From the NCBI GenBank assembly GCA_050239825.1, contig JBFXGO010000030.1:1-30853 (forward strand): a stretch of DNA of 30,853 nucleotides, written 5' to 3'. The DNA is from a bacterium (GTDB taxonomy: Bacteria > Hydrothermota > 32-111). How positions within the stretch are numbered: the first letter of the stretch is position 1; each line of letters begins with the position of its first letter. A model generated the notes under the pieces. It worked only from the letters and a program-made list of their open reading frames with translations, did no database searches and was not told where the DNA came from. Of the stretch, positions 3,252 to 30,853 are shown in pieces. The position numbers and the translations under genes are program-made.

Positions 3252-3524
3252 ATGAAGAAATATGAGGAAATTTATAAGTATTTTGACAGAGTGCTTTTCT
3301 GGGATTATGACAACATAGACATTAAAAAGCATTCGCGTTTTATAATAGAGAGAATCATTGAATATGGGGATTTTAAGGATATTGAGAATTTACAGAAACT
3401 TTATACCAAAAGACAGATAATAGAAACTATCAAGGAAAGCAGAAATATATCGAGAAAAACAGCAAACTATTGGGCAATAAAATACAATTTAGATGAAAGG
3501 GACATAAAGTGTTTGAGAAAGTAA
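3252..3524 (+). CDS. DUF6922-like protein, putative antitoxin
   Basis: LFWDYD...FIIERIIEYGD...LSRK-like/NYW motifs; overlaps the downstream nucleotidyltransferase gene. Confidence 0.75.
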   Translation: MKKYEEIYKYFDRVLFWDYDNIDIKKHSRFIIERIIEYGDFKDIENLQKLYTKRQIIETIKESRNISRKTANYWAIKYNLDERDIKCLRK

Positions 3525-4132
3525 TCTCTCCTTTGACAAGAAAAATGCTGAAAGACAATCCGGACATAGGTAAAGGGTTTTATCTCGCAGGTGGCACAGG
3601 GCTTGCTCTTCAGGTGGGACATAGAAAATCATTCGACCTTGATTTTTTCACAAATAAGGAATTCTATCCTGACAGTATTGTTGATTCTATTAAGCCGGAC
3701 AAAATATTGTATGCAGAAAAAAATACACTGCATCTGATAAAAAGCAGTACAAAATTGACATTTCTCTATTATGGTGAAAGGCTTGTCTTACCTTTGCTTG
3801 ACTGGAATACTCTAAAAATTGCCGATTATAGAGACATAGCCTCGGAGAAAATCAAGACAATTTCGCAGAGAGGATTGAAGAAAGATTTTTATGACGTTTA
3901 TGCGGCTATAAAAGAGGGGCTGACAATAAAGGATTTGTGTAAGCTCTTCAAGAAAAAATTCAATAAAAGCGGTATGAATAATTATCACATAATAAGAAGT
4001 ATCGTTTATTTTAGTGATGCGGAAAACAATTCAGATGTTAAATTGCTTAAAACGGGCGTGGAATGGAAATGGGAAAGAGTTAAAAGCTTTTTTAAGCTTA
4101 ATTACATTGAATTTGAAAAGCATCTGAAATGA
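3509..4132 (+). CDS. AbiEii/AbiGii-family nucleotidyltransferase toxin
   Basis: FYLAGGTGLALQVGHRKSFDLDFF, K..TISQRG.KKDFYD motifs; GTG start overlapping the antitoxin gene. Confidence 0.9.
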   Translation: MFEKVISPLTRKMLKDNPDIGKGFYLAGGTGLALQVGHRKSFDLDFFTNKEFYPDSIVDSIKPDKILYAEKNTLHLIKSSTKLTFLYYGERLVLPLLDWNTLKIADYRDIASEKIKTISQRGLKKDFYDVYAAIKEGLTIKDLCKLFKKKFNKSGMNNYHIIRSIVYFSDAENNSDVKLLKTGVEWKWERVKSFFKLNYIEFEKHLK

Positions 4133-4196
4133 AGAAAGTCGGTTGGTGAAAAGGGAACTTTATCCCAGCTGAATTATAAAGGAGAAAGTCGAGAAA

Positions 4197-7100
4197 ATGT
4201 CAAGATGTCAAGCACCGTCCCCAAAATACACTCTGATAAAGGCGGCGGCAGGGTCGGGGAAGACATACAGGATAGCAAAAGAATATATCAAATATATTTT
4301 AAGTGATCCGAAGCAGATAAAATCAATCCTTGCAATAACATTCACAAACAAAGCCGCCTCTGAGATGAAGGAGAGGATACTCAACTTCTTAAAGGGGCTC
4401 TCGGGCAATGCGCAGATGCTCTCAGAAGACGCGGGACGGGACATTGCTCCTCTAAGAGAATCTCTAATGGAGGAGCTCAACATGAGGGAGGAGGACCTCA
4501 AAGCAAAAGCGACTGAAGCGCTTGACTGCATCCTCTATTCTAAAAAAGGCGGGGGCTACTCTGATTTCTCCGTAATGACAATTGATTCTTTCACAAACTC
4601 CATGACAAAGGCATTCTCATACGAACTTGACATTCCGCCGGAGTATGGAGTGGGGCTGAACATAAAAAACATAATCTCTGAGGCGATAAGCGACATAATA
4701 AGCAGAGCAGGCAAGTCGACAGACGAGGAGAGGAGGATAGGGGAGATACTTCTCGAATACCTTTTGTACAGGACAGAGAGCGGAAAGTCAATTACAATGG
4801 AGAAGGAGATTCAAAAGGTTTCCGAGTCAATAAGGAATCTCGAGAAGAACTTTCCCGACAAGAGAGTTGACATACCTGAAGAGTATAAGAGGAATCTCAA
4901 AGAATCTTTAAAAAAACATGCGGGTGAGAGGGAGAAGAACAAAGAGGCAATACTGAAGCTCTGCAGAGAGATAATAGAAATCGATTTTGAGATTACGAAT
5001 TCAACTGAAATAGATTTTAACAATTATAAATACAAGAAGGGCGGATTTTTATCTCCCGTACTGCAATTCATTAATGACGATTCTGATGAAAACATGCTGA
5101 AATTTGAGACAAGCAAAAGGTTTCACGCCGGTATTGAAAATATTGATGACATCCGCTCCAAAGAATCATCAGCGATGAATACTTCAATGGCGGGCGATAA
5201 ACTTGATGAGATGAGAAAGAAAGGAAAGGAAATAAGGGAATACCTTAAATACAATCTGAAAAGCCACCTGAGAAGCGGAATAATAATGAATTATATCTGC
5301 TCAAATCTAATATATGATTCCGTGAGAGAGTATCTTGATGATTATCAGATTGATAACGAGATTCTCTTTATTGATGAGCTCAACGGCAGGATAAAGTCGC
5401 TCTTCACATCGGGGGAGGAAATACCATTCATTTATTTCAGGATAGGCGAAAATTTCAGAAAATACATGATAGATGAGTTTCAGGACACTTCCGAGATACA
5501 GTGGAACAACCTTAAGCCTCTCATTGACAATGCAGTCGCCTCATCGGACGGAAGCTTCACCGGTGTGGGAGACTTGAAACAGGCGATATACAGGTTCCGC
5601 GGAGGAAGCACCGAGGTTATGCAAAAGACGGAGAAGGATGCGGCGGAGGAGAGTCTCGATTCAAATTACAGGAGCGATAAGAATATAATATCATTCAACA
5701 ATCATGTTTTTGACGGACTGCTTAACGAAAGTGTTCCGGCGACACAATCTCTCAAAGAAATTTACCAAAAGAATGTCACACAGAAGCATAAGGATTATCC
5801 TGTCATTGGTTTTACAAATGACATTGATGGAGGTTACATAGAGATACATCAGACAGAAAATAAAGTAAATCTAAAAGAGCATTCAGAAAAGACGGATTTT
5901 GTCTTTAATAGAGTGAAAAATCTCCTTGAAAGAGGTTACTCACAGTCGGATATAGGCATACTTACGAGGACTACGAAGGAATCAAACGAGATAGCGCGGC
6001 AGATTACCGGAAGAGAAGCGGCAGGCACGGAGATAAATGTGATATCAGCCGATTCACTCTTTATCAGCTTTAATCCCTTTGTGGATTTCATTGTGACTTT
6101 GATAAGAAACTGCAGCGAGAAGGAGGATTCTGCCTCCCTTGCACGGGCTGTTTATATTTGGAAGGAGATAGCAAGGGAGAAAAAATCATTTGATGAGGCG
6201 GAAAGAATTCTTTCTGATACGGCAAAGGTGAATAAATACGGATTGGGCAGGATAGTAAACAAACAGATAAGAGAAAGCATCCTTAGGGCGATGTTTACAA
6301 ACGAAGCATACGAGAAGTTTAGTGAAATGATTGACAAGAGATTAAACAAGTACGGAATATATGAAACGATAGCCCTCATCATCGAAATAATCATAAATCC
6401 TCTGTGCAGGGATTACAGCGACTCTATGGCGCACATATCGCGGCTGAAAGAGGCCGCCTACAAACTCATGAAAGAGGCGAATGCAAAGGATTTCATAGAG
6501 TACTTTGATGAATACGGAGAAGGACTCTGCATTGCATCCCCAGCGAATGAGAATGCAGTGACTATTTCAACGATTCATAAGTCAAAGGGGCTTCAGTACA
6601 AAGCCGTGATAATTCCTTTTGTTGATTGGAATGACGCAAAAGAGATGCATAAGAGCTACCTGATATATGATGACCCTAAAATAGCTGTGCCGTATGGAGT
6701 GATAAAGGATGATGTTACTGATGCTCAAAGTAGTGAGATGACAGGCAAGGCAGCGGAAGAGAAAGCAAAGTCGATTTTTGACACTGCCAACATTCTCTAT
6801 GTGGCTCTCACGAGGGCAAAGCATGAGCTCTTCATAATGACAAAGGCGTTGTCTGAGAATAAGGATGAAAAGAATTCTCTCTCTTCGGCAGACAAGCTTC
6901 TTGGGGAGAGAATCAAAACCCTTGAAAATTATCCTGAGATAAAGCGAAGCTCAGAAGATGGCGCCACTGTAATAAAGATAGGACAAGAGCGAACAAGAGA
7001 AAAGGAGAAGAGAGAGAGAGTTGAAGAGGTTGAAAACAAATTTGACATGCATAATCATGAAGATAATCTTTTCATTGACAGAACAATGCACTGTGTGCTT

Positions 7101-10290: not shown

Positions 10291-11141
10291 AGATGAAGAA
10301 ACATCTGAAAGCTGACTTGATGCTACTGGTGGCGACAGTTTTCTGGGGGCTTACCTTTGTCACAGTCAAAGATGCGATGAATTACTCGGGGACATTCTCC
10401 TTCATAGCGGCAAGATTCTTCATAGGCGCATTGATTGTTCTGCCTTTTGTCTTTAAGAAGCTGAAAGCAATTTCCGCAACCACTTTAAAGGATGCCGCTC
10501 TTTTGGGTCTTCTCGTTTTTCTCGGATTTGCACTTCAAACAGCGGGGCTGAAAGAGACCTCATCGACCCGCTCTGCATTCATAACAGGCCTTTCGGTTGT
10601 TCTTGTGCCCGTAATATCCTACTTCATGAACAAAACAAAAATCGATGCATTCAAGACGGCAGGCATAATTCTTTCTGCGGCAGGTTTGTTTCTGATGTTC
10701 CCTCCAAACTCTGCCCCCATAAACAGGGGCGATATCCTAACATTCGCATGCGCTGTTGTATTTGCATTTGTGATTGTCATGATACAGAAATTTACGAAGA
10801 GAAATGACCCGCTTATACTTGTCTTCCTGCATATCTGTTTTGTTGCGGGAATTTCATTTATAATGGCGATTCTCTTTAGAGAAACGAAAATGGAATTTAA
10901 AACTAATTTTATCTATGACCTTTTGTTTACATCCATCTTTGCAACTGCAGGCTCCCTTGTTTTGCAGTATAAGTACCAAAAACAGACAAGCGAAACGAGG
11001 GCGGCGATCGTATATACCCTTGAGCCTCTCTTCGCGGCTCTCTTCGCATTCATTATTGTTGGGGAGAGGATGGCGGGGATTGCGCTTCTCGGTGGCGCGG
11101 CGGTATTTATGGGGATGCTTTTCTCTGAATTTGGAGAATAG
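10284..11141 (+). CDS. DMT/EamA family transporter
   Basis: About 10 hydrophobic segments, FWGLTF..VK, SAFITGLSVVLVP, YTLEPLFA; start uncertain (10278, 10284 or 10293). Confidence 0.9.
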   Translation: MVKMKKHLKADLMLLVATVFWGLTFVTVKDAMNYSGTFSFIAARFFIGALIVLPFVFKKLKAISATTLKDAALLGLLVFLGFALQTAGLKETSSTRSAFITGLSVVLVPVISYFMNKTKIDAFKTAGIILSAAGLFLMFPPNSAPINRGDILTFACAVVFAFVIVMIQKFTKRNDPLILVFLHICFVAGISFIMAILFRETKMEFKTNFIYDLLFTSIFATAGSLVLQYKYQKQTSETRAAIVYTLEPLFAALFAFIIVGERMAGIALLGGAAVFMGMLFSEFGE

Positions 11142-11156
11142 AAGGGTGGAATTTTA

Positions 11157-12512
11157 ATCTCTAGTCCAATATCACTGGTCACGAGTCAAGAAATGTTGGG
11201 GGCAGTTGAATAGCTTAGCGCTCATTCGCACATCAGCCTTGGGCAGCTATATCATGATGGAGTAGAGTTGGAGTGCTGAAAACAGCAGTCCAACAACTGA
11301 GCTGCCCACATGATGGGCTGCCCCGGCTGACATCCTCATGAGCTTGTAGCTTACACTTTCAATAAGTTATTTAATTGATTGAATCTTCACAAAGCATTGG
11401 CTGGGGTGTAATGTGCGCGAACGCACATGATAGAAGAGAACGGGTTGCACCAGAACTTTGTGAAGATTAATGTAAAGACAAAATCTTACTCAGCAGTGTC
11501 ACCGTGAACGCCTCAATGGTTATGACTATCGTGAAGGGTCTATCAGTTTATTGTTAATTGATTATTGAAGATTGTTTATGGGCTGATGTCGGGCGTAGCG
11601 TCGGCTCGCACACTCCGCTTCGCCGCTTAATCAAGATGGGATAGCGTAGCAAGGGGTCGCCCACTTGATGGGCGTCTGCGCGGAGCGTCCTCGCCGACTT
11701 TAAGCTTTCGAGTATCAATAAGCTATTTAATTGATTGTCCTCATGAGAAGCATTGGACAGACGAGCGCTGTGGACAGGCTTCTCATTCGGAACTGAAAAG
11801 ACAAAATCTTACTCAGCAGTGTCATCCTGAACGCCTCTGTGGTTATGACTATCGTGAAGGGTCTGTCAGTTTATCGTTAATTGATTATTGAAGATTGTTT
11901 ATGGGCTGCACGCGGGCGTTGCGTCGGCTCACACACTCCGCTTCGCCGCTTTATCAAGATGGGATAGCGTAGCAAGGGGAGAACCACTTGATGGGCGTCT
12001 GCGCAGAGCGTCCTCGCCGACTTTAAGCTTTCGAGTATCAATAAGCTATTTAATTGATTGAATCTTCACAAAGCATTGGCTTGGGTGAAATGTGTGCGAA
12101 CGCACATGATAGACGCCTCGGGTTGCACCAGAACTTTGTGAAGATTACTGTAAAGACAAAATCTTACTCAAATCTCCGTATTAAGCTCATGGCACATGGC
12201 TCACGGCTCAAGGCTGATTTATGGGCTGATGGCGGGCGTAGCGTCAGCTCACACACTCCGCTTCGCCGCTTTATCAAGATGGGTTACCGGAGCAAGGGGT
12301 CAACCACTTGATGGGCGTCTTCGCGGAGCGTCCTCGCCGTTCACTTTCAATAAGTTAATTAATTGTGTTGCAGTGGGGACACACCGTAGGAATGTCCCCA
12401 AACATTGAATAGCAGTGCGGAGATGCACTGGAATTTTTCCTCGGAACTGTAAAGGCAAGTTATTTAATCAACTCCCCGTATTGTATTTAAGCTCGCAACC
12501 CGCAACTCGAAA
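11157..12512. repeat. modular structured repeat array 1 (leader-A'-B1-C-A-B2-C-A-B1-D-A-B3'-D')
   Basis: Hairpin A/A' at 11220-11343, 11600-11698, 11923-12021, 12243-12339; hairpin B at 11361-11490, 11717-11813, 12040-12168, 12349-~12468; linkers C and D between; no credible ORF. Confidence 0.9.
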
Positions 12513-12571
12513 TTGCATTATAATATGCAATGTTATTGATAATTGGGGGTTGATTAAGAAACCTGTTCAGT

Positions 12572-13942
12572 TTAAAATTTCTTTGACAAAACGCCGAAGG
12601 TGTGTATTAAAAGAGAGATACCGAGACCGACTATCATCGGTTCGATGTTTGAAAGCGGGTTTTCATAGGGAATTATCTTTCTTATAAATATCCATGAGAT
12701 ACTTGAGAGTGTGCCGAAAATCATCTCAATAATAATCAGGTTTTCGCCTACTCTGAATTTTACAAAGTATGCGCCGATAACAGCAAAGATGAGACCCGGG
12801 ATAGCAACTGAGCCGATTATGTACCATAGGTTTATGACGGAAGGAAAAAGGAACGCGAGAAGGACAGCGATAAGAGATGAGAAGAGCATTCCTATCCTTG
12901 CGAAGAGCTTTTCATTGTAATTATTAATATTCAGTTTTTTCATGAAATCAATCGATAATGTGGTCCCGCTTATGAAGATGAATGAATTGAGAGTTGAGAG
13001 GATTGTGGCGAATATACCAGCATAGAAAAGCCCGAGAAGACCCTTTGGCAGAATAGCAGATGCAAGGTTAAAATATGACCACTGGGGAATGGAGAGAGAT
13101 GGAAATGCCGCTCTTGCATATAGGGCTGTGGAGGTGGTGAGAAAGTCAAAGAGAGCCCAGAGGAGTATGGATAGAATTATTCCGTAAAAAGCTGTCTTCT
13201 CATCCTTGGCAGAGTAGCATCTCTGGTGAAAGCCCGGGTCAACGAATGTCCACAAAGCTATGAGAAACCAGACAAAAATGTAGAGTGGGGGCATGCCTCC
13301 GGTTAGAGTAAGATGAGATGAGGGAAGGTTCTCCTTGAGAAATGTGTAATCCCCCAGCTTAAAAAAAGCAAATACAAATAGAACTGCAAACCCCAGGAAC
13401 ATAAAGAAGAACTGAAAAACATCTGTATAAAGGTCGGCTTTAAAACCGCCCTTAAAGACGAAGGGAAGTACGAATAGAAGGGAAATGAGCATGGAAGATA
13501 AAAGGTTGAAGGAAAAGAGCTTTGATAGAATTACTCCGGACATAAGTATGTAGGGAGCCGGGGAAGCAAGTATGAATACAATCAAGGCAGATACCATAGA
13601 GGCCCTTTTTCCGTAAATCTGCTCTATTCTTTCCGGAATGGTGAAGAGGGAAGCCTTTCTCACTTTTTTAGCAAAAAAGATAGCAAATAAAAGAGCAAAA
13701 ACATAATAGGGGAATCCCTGAGTGAACCAGTTTACCAGACCGTACTGATATGTGAACTCTCCGACTCCTAAGATGCCTCCATACCAAGTGGATACATTTG
13801 TAGCTATGAAAAGAAAGAGGCCTGTCTTTCTGTTGTTGATGAGAAAATCATTATTTCCGCTCTTTCCCCTGGATGCGAAATAACCGGTAAGTCCGAGGAG
13901 AACGAAGAATGAAAGAATGACTGCTAAATCTGCATTAGTCAT
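12572..13942 (-). CDS. sodium:solute symporter family protein
   Basis: About 13 TM segments, STWYGGILGVGE, GGFKADLYTD.FQ, DPGFHQR, FATILSTLNS; start moved to ATG 13942 because a TGnTATAAT -10 box lies within the longer ORF. Confidence 0.9.
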   Translation of the reverse strand: MTNADLAVILSFFVLLGLTGYFASRGKSGNNDFLINNRKTGLFLFIATNVSTWYGGILGVGEFTYQYGLVNWFTQGFPYYVFALLFAIFFAKKVRKASLFTIPERIEQIYGKRASMVSALIVFILASPAPYILMSGVILSKLFSFNLLSSMLISLLFVLPFVFKGGFKADLYTDVFQFFFMFLGFAVLFVFAFFKLGDYTFLKENLPSSHLTLTGGMPPLYIFVWFLIALWTFVDPGFHQRCYSAKDEKTAFYGIILSILLWALFDFLTTSTALYARAAFPSLSIPQWSYFNLASAILPKGLLGLFYAGIFATILSTLNSFIFISGTTLSIDFMKKLNINNYNEKLFARIGMLFSSLIAVLLAFLFPSVINLWYIIGSVAIPGLIFAVIGAYFVKFRVGENLIIIEMIFGTLSSISWIFIRKIIPYENPLSNIEPMIVGLGISLLIHTFGVLSKKF

Positions 13943-13948
13943 ATTGTC

Positions 13949-13976
13949 ATTATAGCAAAACAATGTTCTTAATCAA
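13949..13976 (-). promoter_or_regulatory. sigma70 promoter for the symporter, probably leaderless
   Basis: Minus strand TTGATT-16 bp-TATAAT with extended TG, 6 nt before ATG 13942. Confidence 0.6.
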
Positions 13977-13988
13977 TAAGCAAAACCT

Positions 13989-15156
13989 ATCTCTAGTCCA
14001 ATATCACCAGTCACGAGTCAAGAAATGTTGGGGGCAGTTGAATAGCTTAGCGCTCATTCGCACATCAGCCTTGGGCAGCTATATCATGATGGAGTAGAGT
14101 TGGAGTGCTGAAAACAGCAGTCCAACAACTGAGCTGCCCACATGATGGGCTGCCCCGGCTGACATCCTCATGAGCTTGTAGCTTTCACTTTCAATAAGCT
14201 ATTTAATTGGTTGAATCTTCACAAAGCATTGGCTGGAGTGTAATGTGCGCGAACGCACATGATAGACGCCTCGGGTTGCACCAGAACTTTGTGAAGATTA
14301 CTGTAAAGACAAAATCTTACTCAGCAGTGTCACCCTGAACGCCTCAATGGTTATGACTATCGTGAAGGGTCTATCAGTTTATCGTTAATTGATTATTGAA
14401 GATTGTTTATGGGCTGATGGCGGGCGTAGCGTCGGCTCACACACTCCGCTTCGCCGCTTTGTCTCGGCAGACCTCGACGGGCGTCTGCGCGGAGCGTCCT
14501 CGCCGACTTGAAGCTTTCACTTTCAATAAGAATTGATTTGCTTGTCCTCGGAAAAACATTGAATAGCAGTGCGGAGATGCACTGGAATTTTTCCTCGGAG
14601 TTGTAAAGGCAAGTTATTTACTCATCTCCCCGTATTAAGCTCATGGCGCATGGCTCACGGCTCAGGGCTGATTTTATGGGCTGCATGCAGGTGTAGCGTC
14701 GGCTCGCACACTCCGCTGCGCCGCTCTATTTTTAGGGACGGTGGTTGCAAAAAGCTGCATTTTTTGAATCGTTAAAATTATGAGTTGCTGATCAAGAAAT
14801 GTTTGCTGGCTGCACGTTGGTGTAGCGTCGGCTCGCACACTCCGCTTCGCCGCTTTATCAAGATGGGATAGCGGAGCAAGGGGACAACCACTTGATGGGC
14901 GTCTGCGCGGAGCGTCCTCGCCGACTTGTAGCTTTCGTGTATCAATAAGTTAATTATTTGATTAAATCTTCACAAAGCATTGGCTGGGGAGAAATGTGCG
15001 CGAACGCACATGATAGAGGTATCGGGTTGCACCAGAACTTTGTGAAGATTGCTGTAAAGACAAAATCTTAATCAAATCTCCGTATTAAGCTCAAGGCACA
15101 TGGCTCACGGCTCAAGGCTGACTTGGGGCGGCTGAATAGCATAGCATTCATTTGCA
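13989..15156. repeat. modular structured repeat array 2 (leader-A'-B1-C-A(short)-B3-D-A(truncated)-A-B1-D-A'(truncated))
   Basis: A' 14052-14175, B1 14193-14321, A 14431-14507, B3 14525-14622, truncated A from 14698, A 14827-14925, B1 14944-15072, D 15089-15120; the first ~470 bp nearly identical to 11157-11628. Confidence 0.9.
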
Positions 15157-15207
15157 ATATTATACCTATGCACTTTATTAAAACAAAAAAAAGTATATAA
15201 TATATGA

Positions 15208-16479
15208 ATGAAAAATATTTACAGAATTATCGTTGCTGTAACAATTGTTTTTGTAGCACTTTATTTTTCATTTTATACGGAAAGAGCCGGCGGCTACCTG
15301 TCTACACTGATTTTCTTCGCGCTTTCATCAACGGCTGTGATGGTAAAAAAGGATATTGATTTATCAATGCTCTGGGTGAGTCTGCCTGCTTCAATTTTGG
15401 TAACGGCATTTATTTTTAAGACGCACCTGTATCCAGAGATAATGATATTGGCTATGAACAGGCTTTATCTTGTAATTCTCTCTTTTATACCGTTTAAGAA
15501 AACAAAGGAGATAAGGATTATCTCTCTCATATACTGCAATCTAATCGTATTCCTTGTTTTGATTGAGCTTCTCCTTAACCTGATTTTCATGATTTATCCG
15601 TTTGAAGTTTTAAAGAGAAAAACCGACATATTCAGACTCGCTCCTTCAACGACTTTTAATAATTCGCCTGTGAATGAAGACGGATACATGGGAAGAAGAG
15701 TATCCGATGAAAAAAAAGAGAGAAGAATTCTTTTCATAGGAGATTCATTCGGAGTGGGTGTAGTTGATTACAAGCATAATTTCATACAGATGATTGACGA
15801 CTCAACTGAATATGAATGCATCAACCTTTCACAGCCGGGATATTCGCCGGTTGATTATCTGAGAGAACTCAAAACCAATTTTGATAAAGCCTGTCCAGAC
15901 CTTGTTATCATAATTATCTTTGCCGGGAATGACATTCTAAATATAGCTGTCGGGGAAAACAATTGGTCTATAGATAATTTTAAATCAATCAATCTGATAA
16001 GAAATGCAGATGTTTTCCTTAAAGAGAGAAAGAGAATAAAGAAAGAAACTGAAAGCTTTTCAATGACGAGAGAAACCTTTCTTGAAGTCGAGAAAAGAAG
16101 AATGAAAGTTAATGAAAAAGATTCTCTTAAAAGAGAGTGGAGTCTTTTTGAGAAGACAATTGATGAGATGAAAGTGTTTCTTGACGGTAAAAACAGAAGG
16201 TATTTATTTTTGATAATTCCGGATGAATTTTCGATTAATGAGAATCTGCAGAGAGATTTGGGAAAAGATGATTCCGTTGACTGGCTTTACTCTGTCAAAA
16301 GAATCGCAGATTTGCTTGACGAAAGAGGAATTGAACACATCAATTCAACGAAATCACTCCAAGAAGCCTTTAAAGCAGGCGTCAATCCATACAGAGAGAA
16401 TGATACGCATGTGAATGAATATGGAAATTACATTTTATTCAATGAATTAAAAAAGTATATTGACTTTACAGAAAGATGA
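15208..16479 (+). CDS. membrane-anchored SGNH/GDSL-like hydrolase (AlgX/AlgJ-like)
   Basis: N-terminal TM helices, block I ILFIGDSF, block III FAGND, block V NDTHVNEYG. Confidence 0.75.
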   Translation: MKNIYRIIVAVTIVFVALYFSFYTERAGGYLSTLIFFALSSTAVMVKKDIDLSMLWVSLPASILVTAFIFKTHLYPEIMILAMNRLYLVILSFIPFKKTKEIRIISLIYCNLIVFLVLIELLLNLIFMIYPFEVLKRKTDIFRLAPSTTFNNSPVNEDGYMGRRVSDEKKERRILFIGDSFGVGVVDYKHNFIQMIDDSTEYECINLSQPGYSPVDYLRELKTNFDKACPDLVIIIIFAGNDILNIAVGENNWSIDNFKSINLIRNADVFLKERKRIKKETESFSMTRETFLEVEKRRMKVNEKDSLKREWSLFEKTIDEMKVFLDGKNRRYLFLIIPDEFSINENLQRDLGKDDSVDWLYSVKRIADLLDERGIEHINSTKSLQEAFKAGVNPYRENDTHVNEYGNYILFNELKKYIDFTER

Positions 16480-20242: not shown

Positions 20243-20330
20243 TTTATAAAAAGGAGGAGAATGAAGTTTCTCGTTCTTCTTATGCAAATAACAGTTCGGA
20301 ATTCAATTCACGAAAATATAAGGAGTGTCC

Positions 20331-21197
20331 ATGACTCTTAAAATGGAGATATTCAAGTGCAGTGTGTGCGGAAATATTGCAGAGATAATACATTCGGGAG
20401 AAGGAGAGCTCGTGTGCTGCAACGAGAAGATGGTAAAGTCGGAACCGAAAGATAAAGAGGAAGGAACCGAGAAGCATCTGCCGACAATAAAGGAAAATGA
20501 TGATTTATTTTTAATTCAGGTTGGCGAGACAGAGCATCCTATGACAGCAGAGCACCATATAGAATGGATTGAAGCTGTAACAGAAGAAAGCACAATTAGA
20601 AAATTTTTAAAACCGGGAGAAAAACCGAGGATGACTCTTAACAAGAAGTACAGAATTAAATTGGTAAGAGCCTACTGCAACATTCACGGACTTTGGAGGA
20701 AGCCGAATATAAATGAGTTTAACAGGGAGGATGTGATACTCTTTGCAATAAAGAGCGAGAGGAGCGCAATGACGGTTTACAGCACTCTGGCAAAGAGGGT
20801 GAAGAATGCAATTTTAAAGGAGAGGCTTACATTCCTCGCGGGAGAAGAGGAAAAACATGAGGCATATTTCGAGGAATTGTACAAAATGACATATCTGAAC
20901 AAAAACATCGTTATTCCTCCCGATGACATAATCCCGACTCCGAGAATAGATGTAAAAGACGAAAATAAAAACATAAGCGAGGTACTCTCATCAGCTATGG
21001 ATGCAGAGCTTGCGGCAAATGAGTTTTATCTGGATGCGGCGGTAAAATTCACCGATATGCCGAAAACAGCAAAGATGCTGAAGTTTTTTGCCTCTATGGA
21101 GATGATACACTATGCAATTCTGTCTGTTGAAAAGAAGAATGCGGAGATATTTGAATCATACGAATTTGAAGTTCCAATGATTCATGTCGGTCCTTGA
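20331..21197 (+). CDS. dfx: desulfoferrodoxin (2Fe superoxide reductase) fused to a rubrerythrin/ferritin-like domain
   Basis: Centre I CSVCGN...VCC; centre II EKH, HPM..EHH, CNIHGLW; then E..SA..Y, EEEKH, E..ANEFY, EMIH di-iron motifs; SD AGGAG before ATG 20331. Confidence 0.85.
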   Translation: MTLKMEIFKCSVCGNIAEIIHSGEGELVCCNEKMVKSEPKDKEEGTEKHLPTIKENDDLFLIQVGETEHPMTAEHHIEWIEAVTEESTIRKFLKPGEKPRMTLNKKYRIKLVRAYCNIHGLWRKPNINEFNREDVILFAIKSERSAMTVYSTLAKRVKNAILKERLTFLAGEEEKHEAYFEELYKMTYLNKNIVIPPDDIIPTPRIDVKDENKNISEVLSSAMDAELAANEFYLDAAVKFTDMPKTAKMLKFFASMEMIHYAILSVEKKNAEIFESYEFEVPMIHVGP

Positions 21198-28487: not shown

Positions 28488-30724
28488 CAGTATATATCCA
28501 GTATATCAAGTTTCTCTATCGGATTGCCGAGATATATGCTGTAAGTAAATTTGGAACGCGTTTCATTGTCTATTTTTGAACGAAAGTATCCGCCGCCTAT
28601 CTCAAACAAACCTATAATGGTAGATATGCCGAGGGATAATCTTGAACCGCCGATAAAAGATGGGTCAAACTCAGCTATCAATTGATTCGTGAAACCCGCA
28701 ATCTCAGTTTCATTTTTTATGAAGACTGTTTCATTAACATAGAATTTTTCAGAGATGCCGAATGATATAAAATACCTGCCAGTCAGAATTGGGTCGTAGA
28801 GATACTGAAATTCAAAGGTCGGCCTAGCTACAGAATAATCAATCTGAATCTTGTCATTGTACTGATGGTTCTTGTAGAGCTGAGTTATCACTCCTATTGA
28901 AGAGAAGAAAGACATGTTGAATCTGGTGTGGAGTTTAGCCATCTTTGTGAATTCTCCTATTCCCTTGAAGTATGTCTGTTTGAAATTATCCGATGAAACT
29001 ATTGTCGATAGAGTTGGAATGCTGTCTGCAAGGAAACTATAGAAAGGGACATTGATTCCAATCATAAATCCGCTCCTCTCACCGCTTATATTTTCAAAAG
29101 AAGATGAAATTGTATTTTTGAGATAAAACAGTCCGAAAGAGTTTTTGAGAATATCCCTCTCCTCAATCTTCTTGTATCTGGCGCCCCCAAAGAGAGAAAA
29201 GAATGACCTCGAACCGAAATTGTTTCCCAAAAGCATGGTTGCATTAAAATTGTGATGGTATCCGAATGTGTTTTCATATACTCCGAAGTATTTATAAATG
29301 TGATAATTCGTATAGATTCCGGCGATGGTGTTTGTATACCCGAGAGAGGGGAAGAAGAGGTTTATGGATGCGCCCTTCACGAAATTTCCTGCGAATCCGT
29401 ATAGATCAAACATGCCGCCGTAGTTGAAAATGTTATTCTTCTCATATTTTGCGTAAATGTTTATCCCCGCCCTAGAGTCAGCAAAAGCACCGACAGAGAC
29501 CTTGTTGTAACTGATGGGAGTTGTTTTTATTATTATTGAAAGATTTCTGCCAATCCTATTATATTTAATCTCGGGTTCGATGCTTTTAAAAAGGCCGATA
29601 GCGTAAAGTCTGTAGAAACCAAGCTTCAATTTTGAGAATGAAAAAATATCTCCCACTCTCATCTCTATTGCGTTTAGAACTGTGCTTCTTGTAAGGTTGT
29701 TGTCTGCTTCAATCTTTATCTCACCTATTATTCTTCCGTCAAAGACCGCGAAATCATCAATCAAATTTCTTCTGTAAGAGGGATACTCCTCTCTTCTTCT
29801 TATTTTTTCAAGAATAGCCGGGGCCTGCTCCTTCATGGCGGTATACCCGAGTTCTATGAGCTCCTTGGCTTTTGTGAATTCATATCCGTTGAAATCATCT
29901 ACTGAAGGTCTGACATAATGTCCCATAAGCTCAAGAGAGTCCCTGCTCAAGTTGATTGTCAGAAGGTCGACAAGAGTGAATGTGATATCAAAAACATTGA
30001 GGTTTTTTCTTTCGAGAGTTTTTTTGTTTCCCGATACATCAATAGAGATTATGAAATCGGCATCAAAAGTGTCTCTCACAGCCTTGGCGGGTATATTGTC
30101 AAACATCCCTCCGTCAAAGAGATATTGATCTCCGATTTTTGCCGGTTTGAAGATAACAGGGAGAGACATTGATGCGCGTATAGAATTGCCGAGAGAACCG
30201 CTTGTAATTATGAGGGGATTCTCCATGTTTATATCTGTTGCAGTGCATAGAAACGGCTTCCAGAGTTTTCTGAAATCACCCCGTATGGCATTGTCTGTCT
30301 CCGCAAAGAAAGAGTATAATTCAAGATTTATGAGCTTGTCGTCAAGAGTGCCTTCAGGCACAATGAATCTGTTGTTCTCTATGAACAGGTCGATGAATGT
30401 GGGATAGCTGTTTATTGAATAGTATATCGGAAGTTTTTCTCTTATCGGTATCTCCGTGAACCAATTTTTTATGTCGCTCGTTAAAAATATTGATTCGATC
30501 TCAGATGCAGTATAACCGGAAGCCCAGAGTCCTCCTATAATTGCCCCCATGCTTGTTCCGCCTACAACATCAACCGGAATCTGATATTCTTCAATGGCTT
30601 TTAAAACTCCAATGTGAGCTAGACCCCGCGCCGCTCCTCCTCCCAAAACCAACCCAATTCTCTCTTGAGAAAATGAAGAGAGTGATATAATCATAAGAAT
30701 GGACAAAATTATTATTCTTCGCAT
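28487..30724 (-). CDS. secreted patatin-like phospholipase with POTRA-like and probable beta-barrel C-terminus (PlpD-like)
   Basis: Signal peptide, GGGAARGLAHIG, GTSMG, RASMSLP, DGG; G..IGEIKI...GD.FS...L..LY..GLF POTRA-like segment; aromatic/Gly-rich alternating C-terminus; start set to ATG 30724, 6 nt after TGTATAAT. Confidence 0.8.
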   Translation of the reverse strand: MRRIIILSILMIISLSSFSQERIGLVLGGGAARGLAHIGVLKAIEEYQIPVDVVGGTSMGAIIGGLWASGYTASEIESIFLTSDIKNWFTEIPIREKLPIYYSINSYPTFIDLFIENNRFIVPEGTLDDKLINLELYSFFAETDNAIRGDFRKLWKPFLCTATDINMENPLIITSGSLGNSIRASMSLPVIFKPAKIGDQYLFDGGMFDNIPAKAVRDTFDADFIISIDVSGNKKTLERKNLNVFDITFTLVDLLTINLSRDSLELMGHYVRPSVDDFNGYEFTKAKELIELGYTAMKEQAPAILEKIRRREEYPSYRRNLIDDFAVFDGRIIGEIKIEADNNLTRSTVLNAIEMRVGDIFSFSKLKLGFYRLYAIGLFKSIEPEIKYNRIGRNLSIIIKTTPISYNKVSVGAFADSRAGINIYAKYEKNNIFNYGGMFDLYGFAGNFVKGASINLFFPSLGYTNTIAGIYTNYHIYKYFGVYENTFGYHHNFNATMLLGNNFGSRSFFSLFGGARYKKIEERDILKNSFGLFYLKNTISSSFENISGERSGFMIGINVPFYSFLADSIPTLSTIVSSDNFKQTYFKGIGEFTKMAKLHTRFNMSFFSSIGVITQLYKNHQYNDKIQIDYSVARPTFEFQYLYDPILTGRYFISFGISEKFYVNETVFIKNETEIAGFTNQLIAEFDPSFIGGSRLSLGISTIIGLFEIGGGYFRSKIDNETRSKFTYSIYLGNPIEKLDILDIY

Positions 30725-30853
30725 ATCACCATTATACATAAAAAAGTTATCAAGACAATATGCCGACAGTTGTGATGAGTATAACTTACAATTGTTTTTT
30801 TCGGAAGAATCAATATAATAAAAGACAAATTTGTAATTTCAGCCGATTAAATG

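Follow-up and report, generated by a model that had tools for sequence, protein, structure and literature searches.

Two gene-free regions in a 30,853-nt stretch of DNA from an uncultured bacterium of the Hydrothermota (contig JBFXGO010000030.1 of assembly GCA_050239825.1; hereafter the window) are built from hairpin-forming modules that recur in a fixed order. They raise the question of whether such arrays are sets of structured non-coding RNAs or a BIME/MITE-like mosaic handled in trans, the two readings left side by side by the original prediction, which also regarded them as a candidate for an undescribed system. The genome to which the window belongs is a MAG of 67 contigs and 2,115,113 bases.

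Modular anatomy of the two arrays

Array 1 (11157-12470) and array 2 (13989-15124) are covered by the direct-repeat families D1-D10 (Table 1). Array 1 reads A'-B1-C, A-B2-C, A-B1-D and A(1-122)-B3, and array 2 reads A'-B1-C, A(short)-B3b-D, A(1-53), a gap of 93 nt, A-B1-D and a fragment of A'. Direct repeats and module map bear out the predicted grammar of hairpin A, hairpin B and linker, to which three modules obeying the same order (E, H and P) were added: linker H precedes each A', module E lies in the gap that separates the truncated A of array 2 from the A behind it, and B3 contains the palindrome P. The direct-repeat search found six copies of the 57-nt head of A in the window and two copies of a 278-nt A'-B1 block with 98% identity. 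The core of H occurs 23 times genome-wide (at most four mismatches), with 21 copies inside an array or next to one.

A unit runs from about four 7-nt repeats (C, D, H or a tail variant) through hairpin A and hairpin B to a conserved B tail. The period and number of the heptads ahead of each A are kept, and their sequence varies with the linker type. Hairpin A is about 150 nt long and has four stems, with a GTAG-like tag at its foot directly 5' of the stem CGTCGGC (of the 106 full copies, 67 have GTAG and 99 fit NTAG), and hairpin B occurs in several interchangeable versions at the second position. All units share the same start point in A and a T-rich stretch at the end; none carries an open reading frame, and their few contents recur. 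The junction words between modules, predicted to be constant, are so locally but not across the 47 arrays of the genome, where TTTATGGGCTG is found exactly only 10 times, in six arrays. As predicted, a Pfam scan of the 21 open reading frames of the window revealed no transposase, reverse transcriptase, integrase or cas family.

Table 1. Modules of the two arrays and the gene between them (window positions)
Positions	Strand	Feature	Evidence or remark
11157-11197	+	Linker H, opens array 1	Heptad-like tract, 3' end CAAGAAATGTT
11198-11365	+	Hairpin A' (variant of A)	RNA fold -65.9 kcal/mol, z -5.7; compensatory changes relative to A
11366-11502	+	Hairpin B1 and tail ...AAAGACAAAATCTTACTCA	Module map; inner-stem compensatory variants
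11503-11574	+	Linker C, ends with four TTATTGA-like heptads	Module map
11575-11721	+	Hairpin A	nhmmer, 184.7 bits; structure analysis
11722-11821	+	Hairpin B2 and tail	Module map, folding
11822-11897	+	Linker C	94% identity to first C
11898-12044	+	Hairpin A	nhmmer, module map
12045-12170	+	Hairpin B1	Module map, 92%
12171-12217	+	Linker D, four GGCTCAN heptads	Direct-repeat family D7, module map
12218-12353	+	Hairpin A, without 10 nt after 3' stem	nhmmer, module map
12354-12470	+	Hairpin B3, including 25-nt palindrome P (12375-12399, GGGGACAC...GTCCCC)	Module map
12471-12520 (approximate)	+	Heptad tail (AACYCGN repeats), closes array 1	Same tail behind many arrays
12572-13963	-	Sodium:solute symporter gene between the arrays, not repeat	Pfam SSF, 3.8e-28
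13989-14029	+	Linker H, opens array 2	H-core search
14030-14197	+	Hairpin A'	Family D4, 98% to 11157-11434; module map
14198-14334	+	Hairpin B1	Module map
14335-14405	+	Linker C	Module map
14406-14529	+	Hairpin A, short-tip variant, GTCTCGGCAGACCTCGAC in place of tip	nhmmer, alignment
14530-14624	+	Hairpin B3b	Module map, folding
14625-14672	+	Linker D	Module map
14673-14729	+	Head of A alone (model positions 1-57)	Family D5, nhmmer
14730-14801	+	Module E	Core 14734-14757 = AGGGACGGTGGTTGCAAAAAGCTG
14802-14948	+	Hairpin A	nhmmer, 180.6 bits
14949-15074	+	Hairpin B1	Module map
15075-15124	+	Linker D	Direct repeats, module map
15125-15156	+	A' head fragment, closes array 2	A' positions 43-74, 81%

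Hairpin A is kept by selection, through compensatory changes. In an alignment of 26 A-family sequences from several genomes, 88.9% of the stem cells are paired, compared to 27.7-50.2% when the partner is slid by 1-3 columns. Both sides have changed in 15 of the 27 pairs, and the observed covariation score was reached by none of 500 shuffles, so that covariation is present in this wider alignment. Between A' and A, both sides are changed in stems 1 and 2, in part of stem 3 and in one pair of stem 4. The inner stem of B1 shows compensatory variants in two of seven pairs (53 distinct full copies).

Genomic distribution and orientation

A search of the genome with an nhmmer model of A gave 128 matches, 105 of full length, which group into 47 arrays on 32 contigs; each array has a single direction, and none of the 47 holds A in both. 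Repeat regions defined by BLAST sum to 41,315 bases, about 2% of the genome; there are 63 such regions, of which 11 reach the end of a contig. In public contigs from one run, the summed depth is 560-2850 over the repeats and 23-25 over flanking genes; none of the contigs listed spans an array, and unit order is that of the MAG assembly and may contain assembly artefacts. Arrays occur in every kind of gene context, including between divergent and between convergent genes, and their length and make-up vary without pattern in the module maps.

Among 41 related genomes, the A-B repeat was found in three, namely the genome of the window and both others of its genus, and in none of the 38 genomes of other genera. 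Searches for Rfam, plasmid and phage matches to the family found none. At the window locus of the related genome G001, both arrays and the symporter gene between them are absent, and where two species have an array at one locus, its content is not the same. A single two-sided empty site was examined; a public WOR-3 record has an array of about 580 nt where the genome of the window has about 50 nt (contig C13, 60224-60275), and no target duplication was seen in this comparison. Circular or excised forms of the repeat were not seen either.

The nearest copies are neighbours within one array, with 96-98% identity over 251-560 nt, compared to at most 94-96% over up to 300 nt between loci; no segment of at least 150 nt exceeds 97% identity between different arrays. 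Since the best matches are neighbours, recent growth looks like local duplication, and the between-array identities give no sign of recent jumps. On contig C14, a block of the A head and E stands twice in tandem, with a spacing of 90 nt.

The orientation of the arrays tracks the local GC skew more closely than it tracks the neighbouring genes. Of the 47 arrays, 40 point the way that the sign of the skew in the flanking DNA indicates (36 of 41 when counted by locus; p ~1e-6), and the nearest gene is co-directional with the array in 29 of 41 cases upstream and 27 of 40 downstream. The skew bias of arrays (85%) is near that of genes (81%), and the weaker gene agreement is at the level expected from two independent biases of 81-85% towards the skew. 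Because arrays agree with the skew, the strand read from A to B is the G-rich strand and thus the lagging-strand template, which is also the target of IS608 and ISDra2 (PMC6006769). This bias could result from selection instead of the mechanism of insertion.

Y1 transposase genes and their end repeats

Four genes for Y1 transposases (Y1_Tnp, PF01797 matches above cut-off) are found elsewhere in the genome. Their translations carry NHYH and YIHNNP or LNPxRAG-type motifs, with Y-x3-NP in all four, and judged by sequence the proteins are class-2 HUH enzymes of RAYT/TIRYT-like type. Their best NCBIfam family is REP_Tyr_transpos ('REP-associated tyrosine transposase'), with 57-73 bits, below the cut-off of 80. 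The protein encoded on contig C5, the sole one scanned against Pfam, has an HTH_23-like C-terminal tail (4.3e-4, below the Pfam cut-off); a C-terminal HTH has been described for TnpA-Y1 subclass 2.1 (PMC6006769). No solved structure matched by sequence.

All four genes have their own inverted repeats of 20-30 nt within about 50 nt of both ends. These four types of terminal inverted repeat (TIR) are present in 6-17 copies each, and several copies form inverted pairs separated by about 125-280 nt. The repeat of the C5 gene is module E; the core of E in array 2 differs from it by one base, at an allowed G/T position. Two of the 17 copies of E flank the gene, three lie elsewhere and 12 are in arrays, where they are always co-directional with and directly 5' of an A; E is limited to about 12 of the 47 arrays. 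The end repeat of the gene on contig C18 (module E2) adds three array copies. Neither A nor B lies beside a Y1 gene, and all four genes have E-type end repeats only.

E has similar flanks in A (CGCCGCTTAAT) and behind a tRNA-Ala gene (CCCGCTTACC), and it could be an independent small element that simply lands in A. The same arrangement of Y1 gene and E after tRNA-Ala is found in the related genome G002, and E is present in two of 26 related genomes, both of the array-bearing genus. Y1 genes are more widespread (19 of 26 genomes) and occur in 10 of the 11 genomes of the same family outside the genus, none of these ten with the A-B repeat.

A GGGGWSAS motif has been reported for the TIRs of TIRYT genes (PMC3733652). 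The TIR cores in this genome, AGGGACGG in three types and GCGGGGGGTG in one, come near to the motif without matching it. Palindrome P, with GGGGACAC at its start, fits the motif; it flanks no Y1 gene, and 49 of its 53 copies are in or beside repeat regions.

Likeness to known repeats and competing explanations

The family shares several features with REP/BIME elements and their RAYT genes: intergenic hairpins in high copy number that carry a GTAG-type tag at their foot, mosaics built with few linkers, and a low-copy class-2 Y1 HUH gene that lies between inverted copies of a dispersed repeat and at the same place in a sister species. The flanking repeat that also occurs in the arrays is E or E2, not A, B, C or D. 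REPs measure 20-40 bp (PMC3733652) and alternate in orientation in BIMEs and REPINs (PMC2817692, PMC3337134). In contrast, A exceeds a REP in length four- to fivefold, only P being REP-sized, the units all point one way with no inverted pair in the region of the window arrays, the bulk modules A and B flank no Y1 gene, and the Y1 proteins score below the RAYT cut-off. A REPIN or BIME proper was rejected on repeat size and orientation.

TIRtrons combine TIRYT genes (TnpA-Y1 subclass 2.1) with TIR families (Di Nocera 2013, PMC3733652; Quentin 2018, PMC6006769). They resemble the present case in several respects: the Y1 proteins are longer, contain the motif NH[YF]H and carry an HTH at the C-terminus, the genes lie between terminal inverted repeats instead of REP hairpins, TIR copies occur elsewhere as singles, pairs or clusters, and the GGGGWSAS motif is present, here in P. 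Unlike in TIRtrons, the E-type core AGGGACGG falls one base match short of this motif and most free E copies sit in head-to-tail arrays with large hairpins and heptad tracts, a setting that does not appear in the passages on TIRtrons of PMC3733652 and PMC6006769. IS200/IS605 elements, whose direction is linked to strand and replication (PMC6006769), and PATEs, derivatives of these elements without a gene, share hairpin ends, the lack of target duplication and replication-linked direction with the A-B units, which are much more modular. An IS200/IS605-derived PATE was rejected, as no class-1 TnpA (Y-x3-Q) was found and the four Y1 genes are all of the NP type, none of them short and IS200-like. 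An integron cassette array was likewise rejected; the units have no open reading frames, the window has no integrase and attC cores (RYYYAAC ... GTTRRRY) were not seen on reading the junctions.

Compared by general architecture, BOX elements of Streptococcus pneumoniae (boxA-boxB(n)-boxC) also consist of ordered, interchangeable short modules in about 100 non-coding, intergenic copies with a predicted fold, but they are single composite elements and not long tandem arrays. NIMEs and Correia elements of Neisseria likewise combine few repeat types with short constant junction repeats (about 20 bp) within one genus, but their units lack long conserved hairpins. We know of no sequence relation of BOX to the A-B repeat, of no link of BOX or NIME/Correia elements to Y1 genes and of no replication-linked direction in the latter.

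The A-B repeats thus form a selfish-looking, hairpin-rich, modular family, which differs from REP/BIME-RAYT and TIR-TIRYT by its long hairpins in head-to-tail arrays. The expectation that it matches no family holds for its sequence and fails for its kind, since repeats associated with RAYT/TIRYT-type Y1 transposases are already known; the arrays fall within this kind and do not represent an undescribed system. Copy number, restriction to one genus, presence and absence between species and the identity of E with a Y1 end repeat support a mosaic handled in trans. We give about an even chance to the arrays being a mosaic repeat, restricted to the genus and non-autonomous, that is handled as single-stranded DNA and is related to REP/BIME-RAYT and TIR-TIRYT. 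The repeats would be, or would formerly have been, processed as single strands on the lagging-strand template by the Y1 HUH endonucleases of the genome, which may cut or join array modules. This would involve a single-strand intermediate; REP/BIME with RAYT and TIR families with TIRYT are the parallel cases. Whole A-B units, and not E or P alone, would be mobile, and arrays would grow and reshuffle through local tandem duplication and recombination at shared junctions.

A competing explanation is that these are satellite-like arrays without a dedicated enzyme, whose modules would spread and reshuffle solely by replication slippage, unequal crossing-over and gene conversion at the junctions they share, E, P and other small modules being passengers or independent insertions. 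The high identity of neighbours, the doubled block on C14 and the variable array content at one locus between species point in this direction. This is rather unlikely, because 47 arrays on 32 contigs need a route to new loci, a site is filled in one species and empty in another, compensatory change conserves the hairpins and array direction tracks replication. The last point also speaks against units that integrate as circles, since double-stranded circles predict no such direction. Here a site-specific recombinase (IS110-type with guide RNA, Xer-like or integron-like) would act and every integrated unit would restore the attachment site, giving tandem arrays, as strictly head-to-tail arrays ending in a partial A head suggest, and an IS110-family element is indeed found at at least six contig ends, precisely inserted into a related repeat between GGGGACGGTGCTT and GACNTCTTGACNTCTT. 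No IS110 end was seen where an array begins or stops, the assembled genome does not contain the IS110 gene, none of the five tyrosine-recombinase matches (three above the family cut-off) is beside an array, and the attC core GTTRRRY was not seen at unit junctions when the sequence was read by eye. This explanation is very improbable.

That A and B act as RNA, in transcribed structured non-coding RNA genes with interchangeable domains, is quite improbable. Covarying stems, the shared start point and T-rich end of the units and, on the + strand of B3, a terminator-like hairpin with a T run behind it would agree with it. This half of the original prediction gained no positive support. No Rfam family matches the arrays at E up to 1; the sole match in the window is InvR at 406-497, outside the arrays, with 24.7 bits against a threshold of 60. 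Promoter-like sites are not in excess (10 compared to 7.0 +/- 2.5 in shuffles) and none of the 10 is within the arrays. Wobble pairs are balanced, with 12 plus-strand G-U cells and, at one pair, 10 C-A cells that the other strand would read as G-U, and neither strand is favoured within the genome. Moreover, about 100 copies with presence/absence differences suit a selfish element better, and arrays are found in all gene contexts. A role for the host, in which a protein would bind 'iteron plus hairpin' sites to structure the chromosome, handle forks or insulate genes and selection with respect to replication would set their direction, is very unlikely. It would account for the constant period and number of the heptads and for the match with GC skew, and REP/BIME elements have been reported to bind host proteins (PMC2817692), but the binding protein is hypothetical only, presence at the same locus varies among sister species, the repeat is confined to one genus, and array length and make-up are patternless.

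A bolder version of handling by Y1 enzymes, decidedly unlikely in our judgement, holds that the A-B units are the long-sought high-copy DNA partners of 'orphan' class-2.1 Y1 HUH proteins (TIRYT), amplified one-endedly at forks. Each unit would represent an origin-like site with about four iteron-like heptads and a large hairpin with a GTAG-tagged foot, which the enzyme would nick on the lagging-strand template as the fork passes. Repeated copying and rejoining from the fixed start in A to alternative T-rich stops would generate the head-to-tail arrays. If true, non-coding DNA would here be amplified in a rolling-circle-like manner that differs from the cut-and-paste of REPIN or IS200.

Anatomy of the mosaic repeat

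The two arrays of the window occupy gene-free stretches in which a repeat search of the region found ten direct-repeat families and no inverted repeat pairs. A module map, made by querying with the modules of the original prediction, reproduced the order given there, with hairpin A followed by hairpin B and a linker (C or D). Array 1 reads A'-B1-C, A-B2-C, A-B1-D, A(1-122)-B3, and array 2 reads A'-B1-C, A(short)-B3b-D, A(1-53), 93 unassigned bases, A-B1-D and an A' fragment. The prediction overlooked the linker H, the end-repeat module E, the palindrome P and a heptad-repeat tail that closes array 1. The constant junction words hold locally but not genome-wide, where TTTATGGGCTG occurs exactly 10 times, in 6 of 47 arrays. 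A transposase, reverse transcriptase (RT), integrase or cas gene had not been seen in the window, and none of these families was found among its 21 scanned ORFs; ARAGORN detected neither tRNA nor tmRNA there.

Positions of the arrays, their modules and other elements (window positions unless a contig, C, of the same genome is named)
Feature	Position	Strand	Remarks
Array 1, gene-free stretch	11157-12520		within region 11157-15156
Array 2, gene-free stretch	13989-15156		within region 11157-15156
Sodium:solute symporter gene	12572-13963	minus	between both arrays; Pfam SSF 3.8e-28
Linker H	11157-11197		opens array 1
Linker H	13989-14029		opens array 2
Module E	14730-14801		occupies the 93 unassigned bases of array 2
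Palindrome P	12375-12399		25 nt, within B3
Free heptad tracts	C60:24158-24434, C63:17373-17557, C8, C15, C37, C48:28191-28311, C49		
MITE-like elements	C14:36254-36466, C28:13895-14107, C41:22135-22346, C47:6391-6604		
Solo repeat GGGGACGGTGCTTGACATCTTGACATTTT	4160-4225	minus	between AbiEii-like gene and addA
DUF6922 protein, then AbiEii-type nucleotidyltransferase	3252-4132		just upstream of addA/addB
Desulfoferrodoxin-rubrerythrin ORF	20325-21197		

The assembly of this genome (G000) comprises 2,115,113 bases in 67 contigs, the window being contig C54. BLAST with the modules detected 63 repeat regions, which total 41,315 bases or 1.95% of the genome, and a profile of A gave 128 matches, 105 of them full length. 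The repeats form 47 arrays of one to six units, none of which carries A in both directions, and in the module map the fixed succession of A, B and linker proposed for the window is kept throughout the arrays of the genome. A single repeat family, unusually strict in its grammar, accounts for two percent of a small, streamlined genome from an uncultured phylum (WOR-3). Variation includes B recombinants, such as the first 42 nt of B3 followed by the remainder of B1, three alternative tips of A besides the A' variant, and at least five element types found ahead of A (C, D, H, E and heptad tails). An array typically starts with a B tail and linker, with E or with H, and ends with a partial A head of 33-57 nt. 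Every linker preceding A carries about four 7-nt repeats, which read TTATTGA in C, GGCTCAN in D, GTCANNA in H and AACYCGN in the tails. Direct repeats combined with a hairpin are reminiscent of the iteron-plus-hairpin origins of HUH replication proteins, and the A-B unit might, as a lead only, be likened to such an origin.

At five places, in arrays on C6, C7, C17, C36 and C66, a 'core-less' form was found, in which the A head (to about position 40) is joined via 5-10 nt (CAGTC, CAATC, GAGTC or TAGTCA) to a B tail. The remainder of A and the whole of B seem to have been excised or never inserted, and an excision scar, an ancestral scaffold or a deletion are candidates. Away from the A-B arrays, the genome also has many intergenic tracts in which a 7-nt repeat (TCAACTA, AACTATT, GCTCACG and others) recurs four to five times, among them four tracts on C60 with a spacing of 81 nt; these tracts may constitute a second repeat family or free 'linker' modules.

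In public contigs of one metagenome run, the summed depth is 560-2850 on the repeats versus 23-25 on the flanking genes, which is consistent with roughly a hundred copies. The repeats are broken into short pieces in the contigs of two DNA runs, and none of the listed contigs spans an array, so that these data are uninformative on excised forms and on the unit order, which is that of the MAG assembly alone; the listed contig joints connect repeat copies and are indistinguishable from other loci. With 11 of its 63 regions at contig ends, the family breaks short-read assemblies, and it is usable as a metagenome marker of the genus. A public WOR-3 contig (L043) matches the window at 30247-30670 and terminates in the 18-nt A-head pattern (window end, 30247-30853), so that C54 probably stops at one more array.

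Conservation of the hairpins and distribution of the family

Hairpin A is conserved as a structure, A and A' differing in sequence in all four stems with an unchanged architecture. A four-helix structure, written by hand from the A/A' alignment, was scored on 26 A-family sequences from several genomes. Paired cells amounted to 88.9%, against 27.7-50.2% with the partner slid by 1-3 columns, and both sides had changed in 15 of 27 pairs; as many of these changes stem from few events (A versus A', the short-tip variant), they speak for conservation of the hairpin and not for many independent tests. The original prediction had tied its reading to covariation in a wider alignment, and such covariation is present in the A hairpin, since none of 500 shuffles reached the score observed with the hand-written structure and these 26 sequences. 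RNAalifold alone recovered the two outer helices, where 10 of the 14 pairs show compensatory changes. In the inner stem of B1, 2 of 7 pairs switch jointly from UA/GC to GC/AU (34 versus 15 of 53 distinct copies). The conserved internal loop of A reads CTCACACAC / CGTCCTC.

The family is restricted to one genus: a two-unit query found it in 3 of 41 related genomes, namely G000 and two others of the genus of the window (G001 and G002), and neither in any of the 11 other genomes of the same family nor in any of 27 further genomes of the class or phylum. The 18-nt A-head pattern occurs at 51 places in a public species collection, 32 of which are confirmed by the A profile, nearly all in five record groups. 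Records of candidate division WOR-3 bacterium UBA2202 contribute 23 loci, one contig from a MAG with the title Vulcanibacillus 4, a bin labelled Gammaproteobacteria 3, a MAG that bears only the title 'bacterium' another 3, and one contig of a Pacearchaeota bin a single locus. By our own estimate, the leftover single 18-nt matches in unrelated organisms are as many as expected by chance for the collection. The Vulcanibacillus, Gammaproteobacteria and Pacearchaeota contigs (L019, L020, L060, L061 (JBFXJF010000028.1); L022, L029, L041; L037) carry repeats up to 93% identical to A', which may reflect either mis-binning or a transfer of the repeat. Plasmid and phage collections gave no match to the two-unit query (blastn, distant mode), and the comparison with Rfam that had been suggested, which covered the entire window and allowed E values up to 1, gave none within the arrays.

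Y1 transposase genes, replication and mobility

Four Pfam Y1_Tnp matches, in open frames of 273-303 aa, were found in the genome, on contigs C5, C14, C18 and C56. The translations carry an HUH (NHYH) and a tyrosine motif of the Y-x3-NP type, and their best NCBIfam model is 'REP-associated tyrosine transposase', at 57-73 bits and below the cut-off of 80. The C5 protein has a weak C-terminal HTH_23 match and retrieved no solved structure by sequence (E up to 0.01). Passages of one study describe TnpA-Y1 subclass 2.1, found in about 15% of sampled strains, as long proteins with NH[YF]H and a C-terminal HTH, with no REPs or REP-like sequences near their genes (PMC6006769). In parts of this and a second source, the subclass probably corresponds to the proteins called 'TIRYT', the genes of which have terminal inverted repeats on either side (PMC6006769, PMC3733652). 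Judged by the motifs of Table 1 of the former source, as distinct from its profiles, the four Y1 proteins fit this subclass (PMC6006769).

Each of the four genes has its own inverted repeat of 20-30 nt directly at both ends. Module E is the end repeat of the C5 gene; between the E core in the window (14734-14757) and the C5 flanks there is a single mismatch, at a position where either G or T is allowed. Its 17 copies comprise 2 at the gene, 12 in arrays and 3 elsewhere, and those in arrays are always co-directional with A and directly 5' of it. The repeats of the other genes are E2 (C18; 12 copies, 2 at the gene, 3 in arrays and the others mostly inverted pairs 125-280 nt apart), E3 (C14; 12 copies, 2 at the gene, 2 variants in arrays and 4 inverted pairs about 190 nt apart) and E4 (C56; 6 copies, 2 at the gene and 4 elsewhere). 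Among 26 related genomes, E with at most two mismatches was found only in G000 (17) and G002 (8), both of the array-bearing genus. The Y1 gene and two inverted E copies directly follow tRNA-Ala in G000 (C5:4300-5153), and the same gene and E pair stand after tRNA-Ala in G002 (L077:1501-2351). In G000 the gene appears to lie ahead of the 23S rRNA 5' end, that is, in an rRNA operon spacer. The C56 gene likewise follows a tRNA gene. Four MITE-like elements of about 210 nt are each formed by an inverted pair of C14-type end repeats, and similar inverted pairs of the C18 type occur once on C9 and twice on C19. Y1 genes as such are not specific to the repeat by co-occurrence: they are present in 19 of 26 related genomes, among which are 10 of the 11 that belong to the same family but not to the genus, versus 3 of 41 for the repeat.

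The array modules themselves show REP-like details. The foot of A consists of NTAG and CGTCGGC...GCCGAC, and of the 106 full copies, 67 have GTAG and 99 have NTAG directly ahead of the first stem (CGTCGGC). GTAG and CGTC are named in part of Di Nocera et al. as two tags that sort REPs (PMC3733652). The palindrome P, GGGGACACACCGWAGGAATGTCCCC, has 53 copies, 49 of them within or adjoining repeat regions; it is hosted by the A tip, by the B start and beside tRNA genes and thus acts like a small insertion of its own. Its first eight bases fit GGGGWSAS, given in a passage of the same source as the motif of TIRYT end repeats (PMC3733652). This motif has 265 matches genome-wide against roughly 190 expected from composition (own estimate) and was dropped as a genome-wide signal, being informative only inside P. 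A genome with a TIRYT end repeat in about a dozen large hairpin arrays offers concrete candidate substrates, namely E, the GTAG-tagged foot of A and P.

The direction of the arrays is linked to replication. From A to B, it follows the sign of the flanking GC skew (repeats masked) in 40 of 47 arrays and, after neighbouring arrays are merged, in 36 of 41 loci (p about 1e-6); of 1338 ORFs with a length of 150 aa or more, 1080 (81%) run with the skew. The closest gene upstream points the same way as the array in 29 of 41 cases and the one downstream in 27 of 40, and these values of about 70% are near the 72% expected from independent biases of 85% and 81%, so that arrays do not track neighbouring genes beyond the common replication bias. 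Among 17 arrays between convergent or divergent genes, 14 run with the skew, 2 against it and 1 is borderline. If GC skew is interpreted in the usual way, the strand that reads from A to B is the G-rich one and the lagging-strand template. IS608 and replication were reportedly the subject of a study by Ton-Hoang in 2010. IS608 and ISDra2, which move as single-stranded DNA, target the lagging-strand template according to a passage of PMC6006769. Selection could also give rise to this orientation bias.

Sites are polymorphic among relatives. At C13:60224-60275, about 50 nt in G000 stand against an array of about 580 nt in a public WOR-3 record, which sits centrally in a short palindrome, between CAAGAG and TCTTG; no target duplication was seen at this site. 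Compared with window 11141-15208, G001 (L066) lacks the symporter gene together with both arrays; about 210 nt separate EamA there from the ortholog of the gene at 15208. In G002 (L070) the symporter gene is present, and its spacers contain no more than a fragment of the A head, heptads and a single B-like hairpin. Both window arrays of G000 open with an H-A'-B1 block (98% over 278 nt, direct orientation), so that a deletion between these copies could remove the symporter gene. Several more sites are occupied in a relative and empty in G000, as judged from one flank only.

We give about an even chance to the reading that the arrays are a non-autonomous mosaic repeat of the REP/BIME-RAYT and TIR-TIRYT kind. 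The repeat would be processed as single-stranded DNA, and the arrays would afterwards grow and reshuffle locally. We infer that the Y1 proteins act on array modules and that entire A-B units, not merely E or P, would move. The array repeat fails defining features of REP, REPIN and BIME proper (size, inverted pairing) and is thus not a member of these groups, yet of that kind.

Alternative explanations have to be weighed against this mosaic repeat. A blastn search for recent jumps (segments of at least 150 nt, at least 94% identical, between arrays) gave nothing above about 96% between loci; copies at separate loci reach at best 94-96% identity, over no more than 300 nt, and the best pairs are neighbours within one array (96-98%). 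This counts against recent jumping and bears on enzyme-free satellite dynamics, which we consider unlikely beside the polymorphic sites. The blocks best common to different loci extend from A position ~6-23 to B position 83-84, which places the shuffling points within the initial 20 nt of A and immediately before the B tail. Non-coding RNA arrays, for which the hairpin conservation has to be considered, are improbable; a search for RNA runs that contain the stretch listed none. The wobble cells comprise 12 plus-strand G-U and, at one pair, 10 C-A, equal to G-U on the other strand, a balance that names no strand; both strands fold about equally within G000, and the A structure fits a DNA hairpin or cruciform as much as RNA. 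Protein-binding sites that serve the host are slightly more improbable still, and circles integrated by a recombinase are the least probable of these explanations. Ideas that were dropped are a reverse-transcriptase route (the only RT gene is probably that of a DGR), a sigma-54 promoter in E (by eye, its spacing is off by one) and attC-like cores (none seen by eye).

Other elements of the window and genome

The solo repeat GGGGACGGTGCTTGACATCTTGACATTTT has about ten copies in the genome, and its 13-nt head is also found directly beside the termini of two multi-copy elements that lie at contig ends. An IS110-family element lies at no fewer than six contig ends of G000 (C3, C9, C13, C23, C28 and C41), its interior not being assembled, and encodes a 360-aa DEDD_Tnp_IS110 + Transposase_20 protein (L072:401-1760). 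In a metagenome contig it is placed exactly between GGGGACGGTGCTT and GACTTCTTGACTTCTT and thus targets that repeat. The DUF6922 and AbiEii-type genes of the window are likely a type IV toxin-antitoxin pair. Further downstream, a single ORF combines both domains of desulfoferrodoxin with a rubrerythrin domain.
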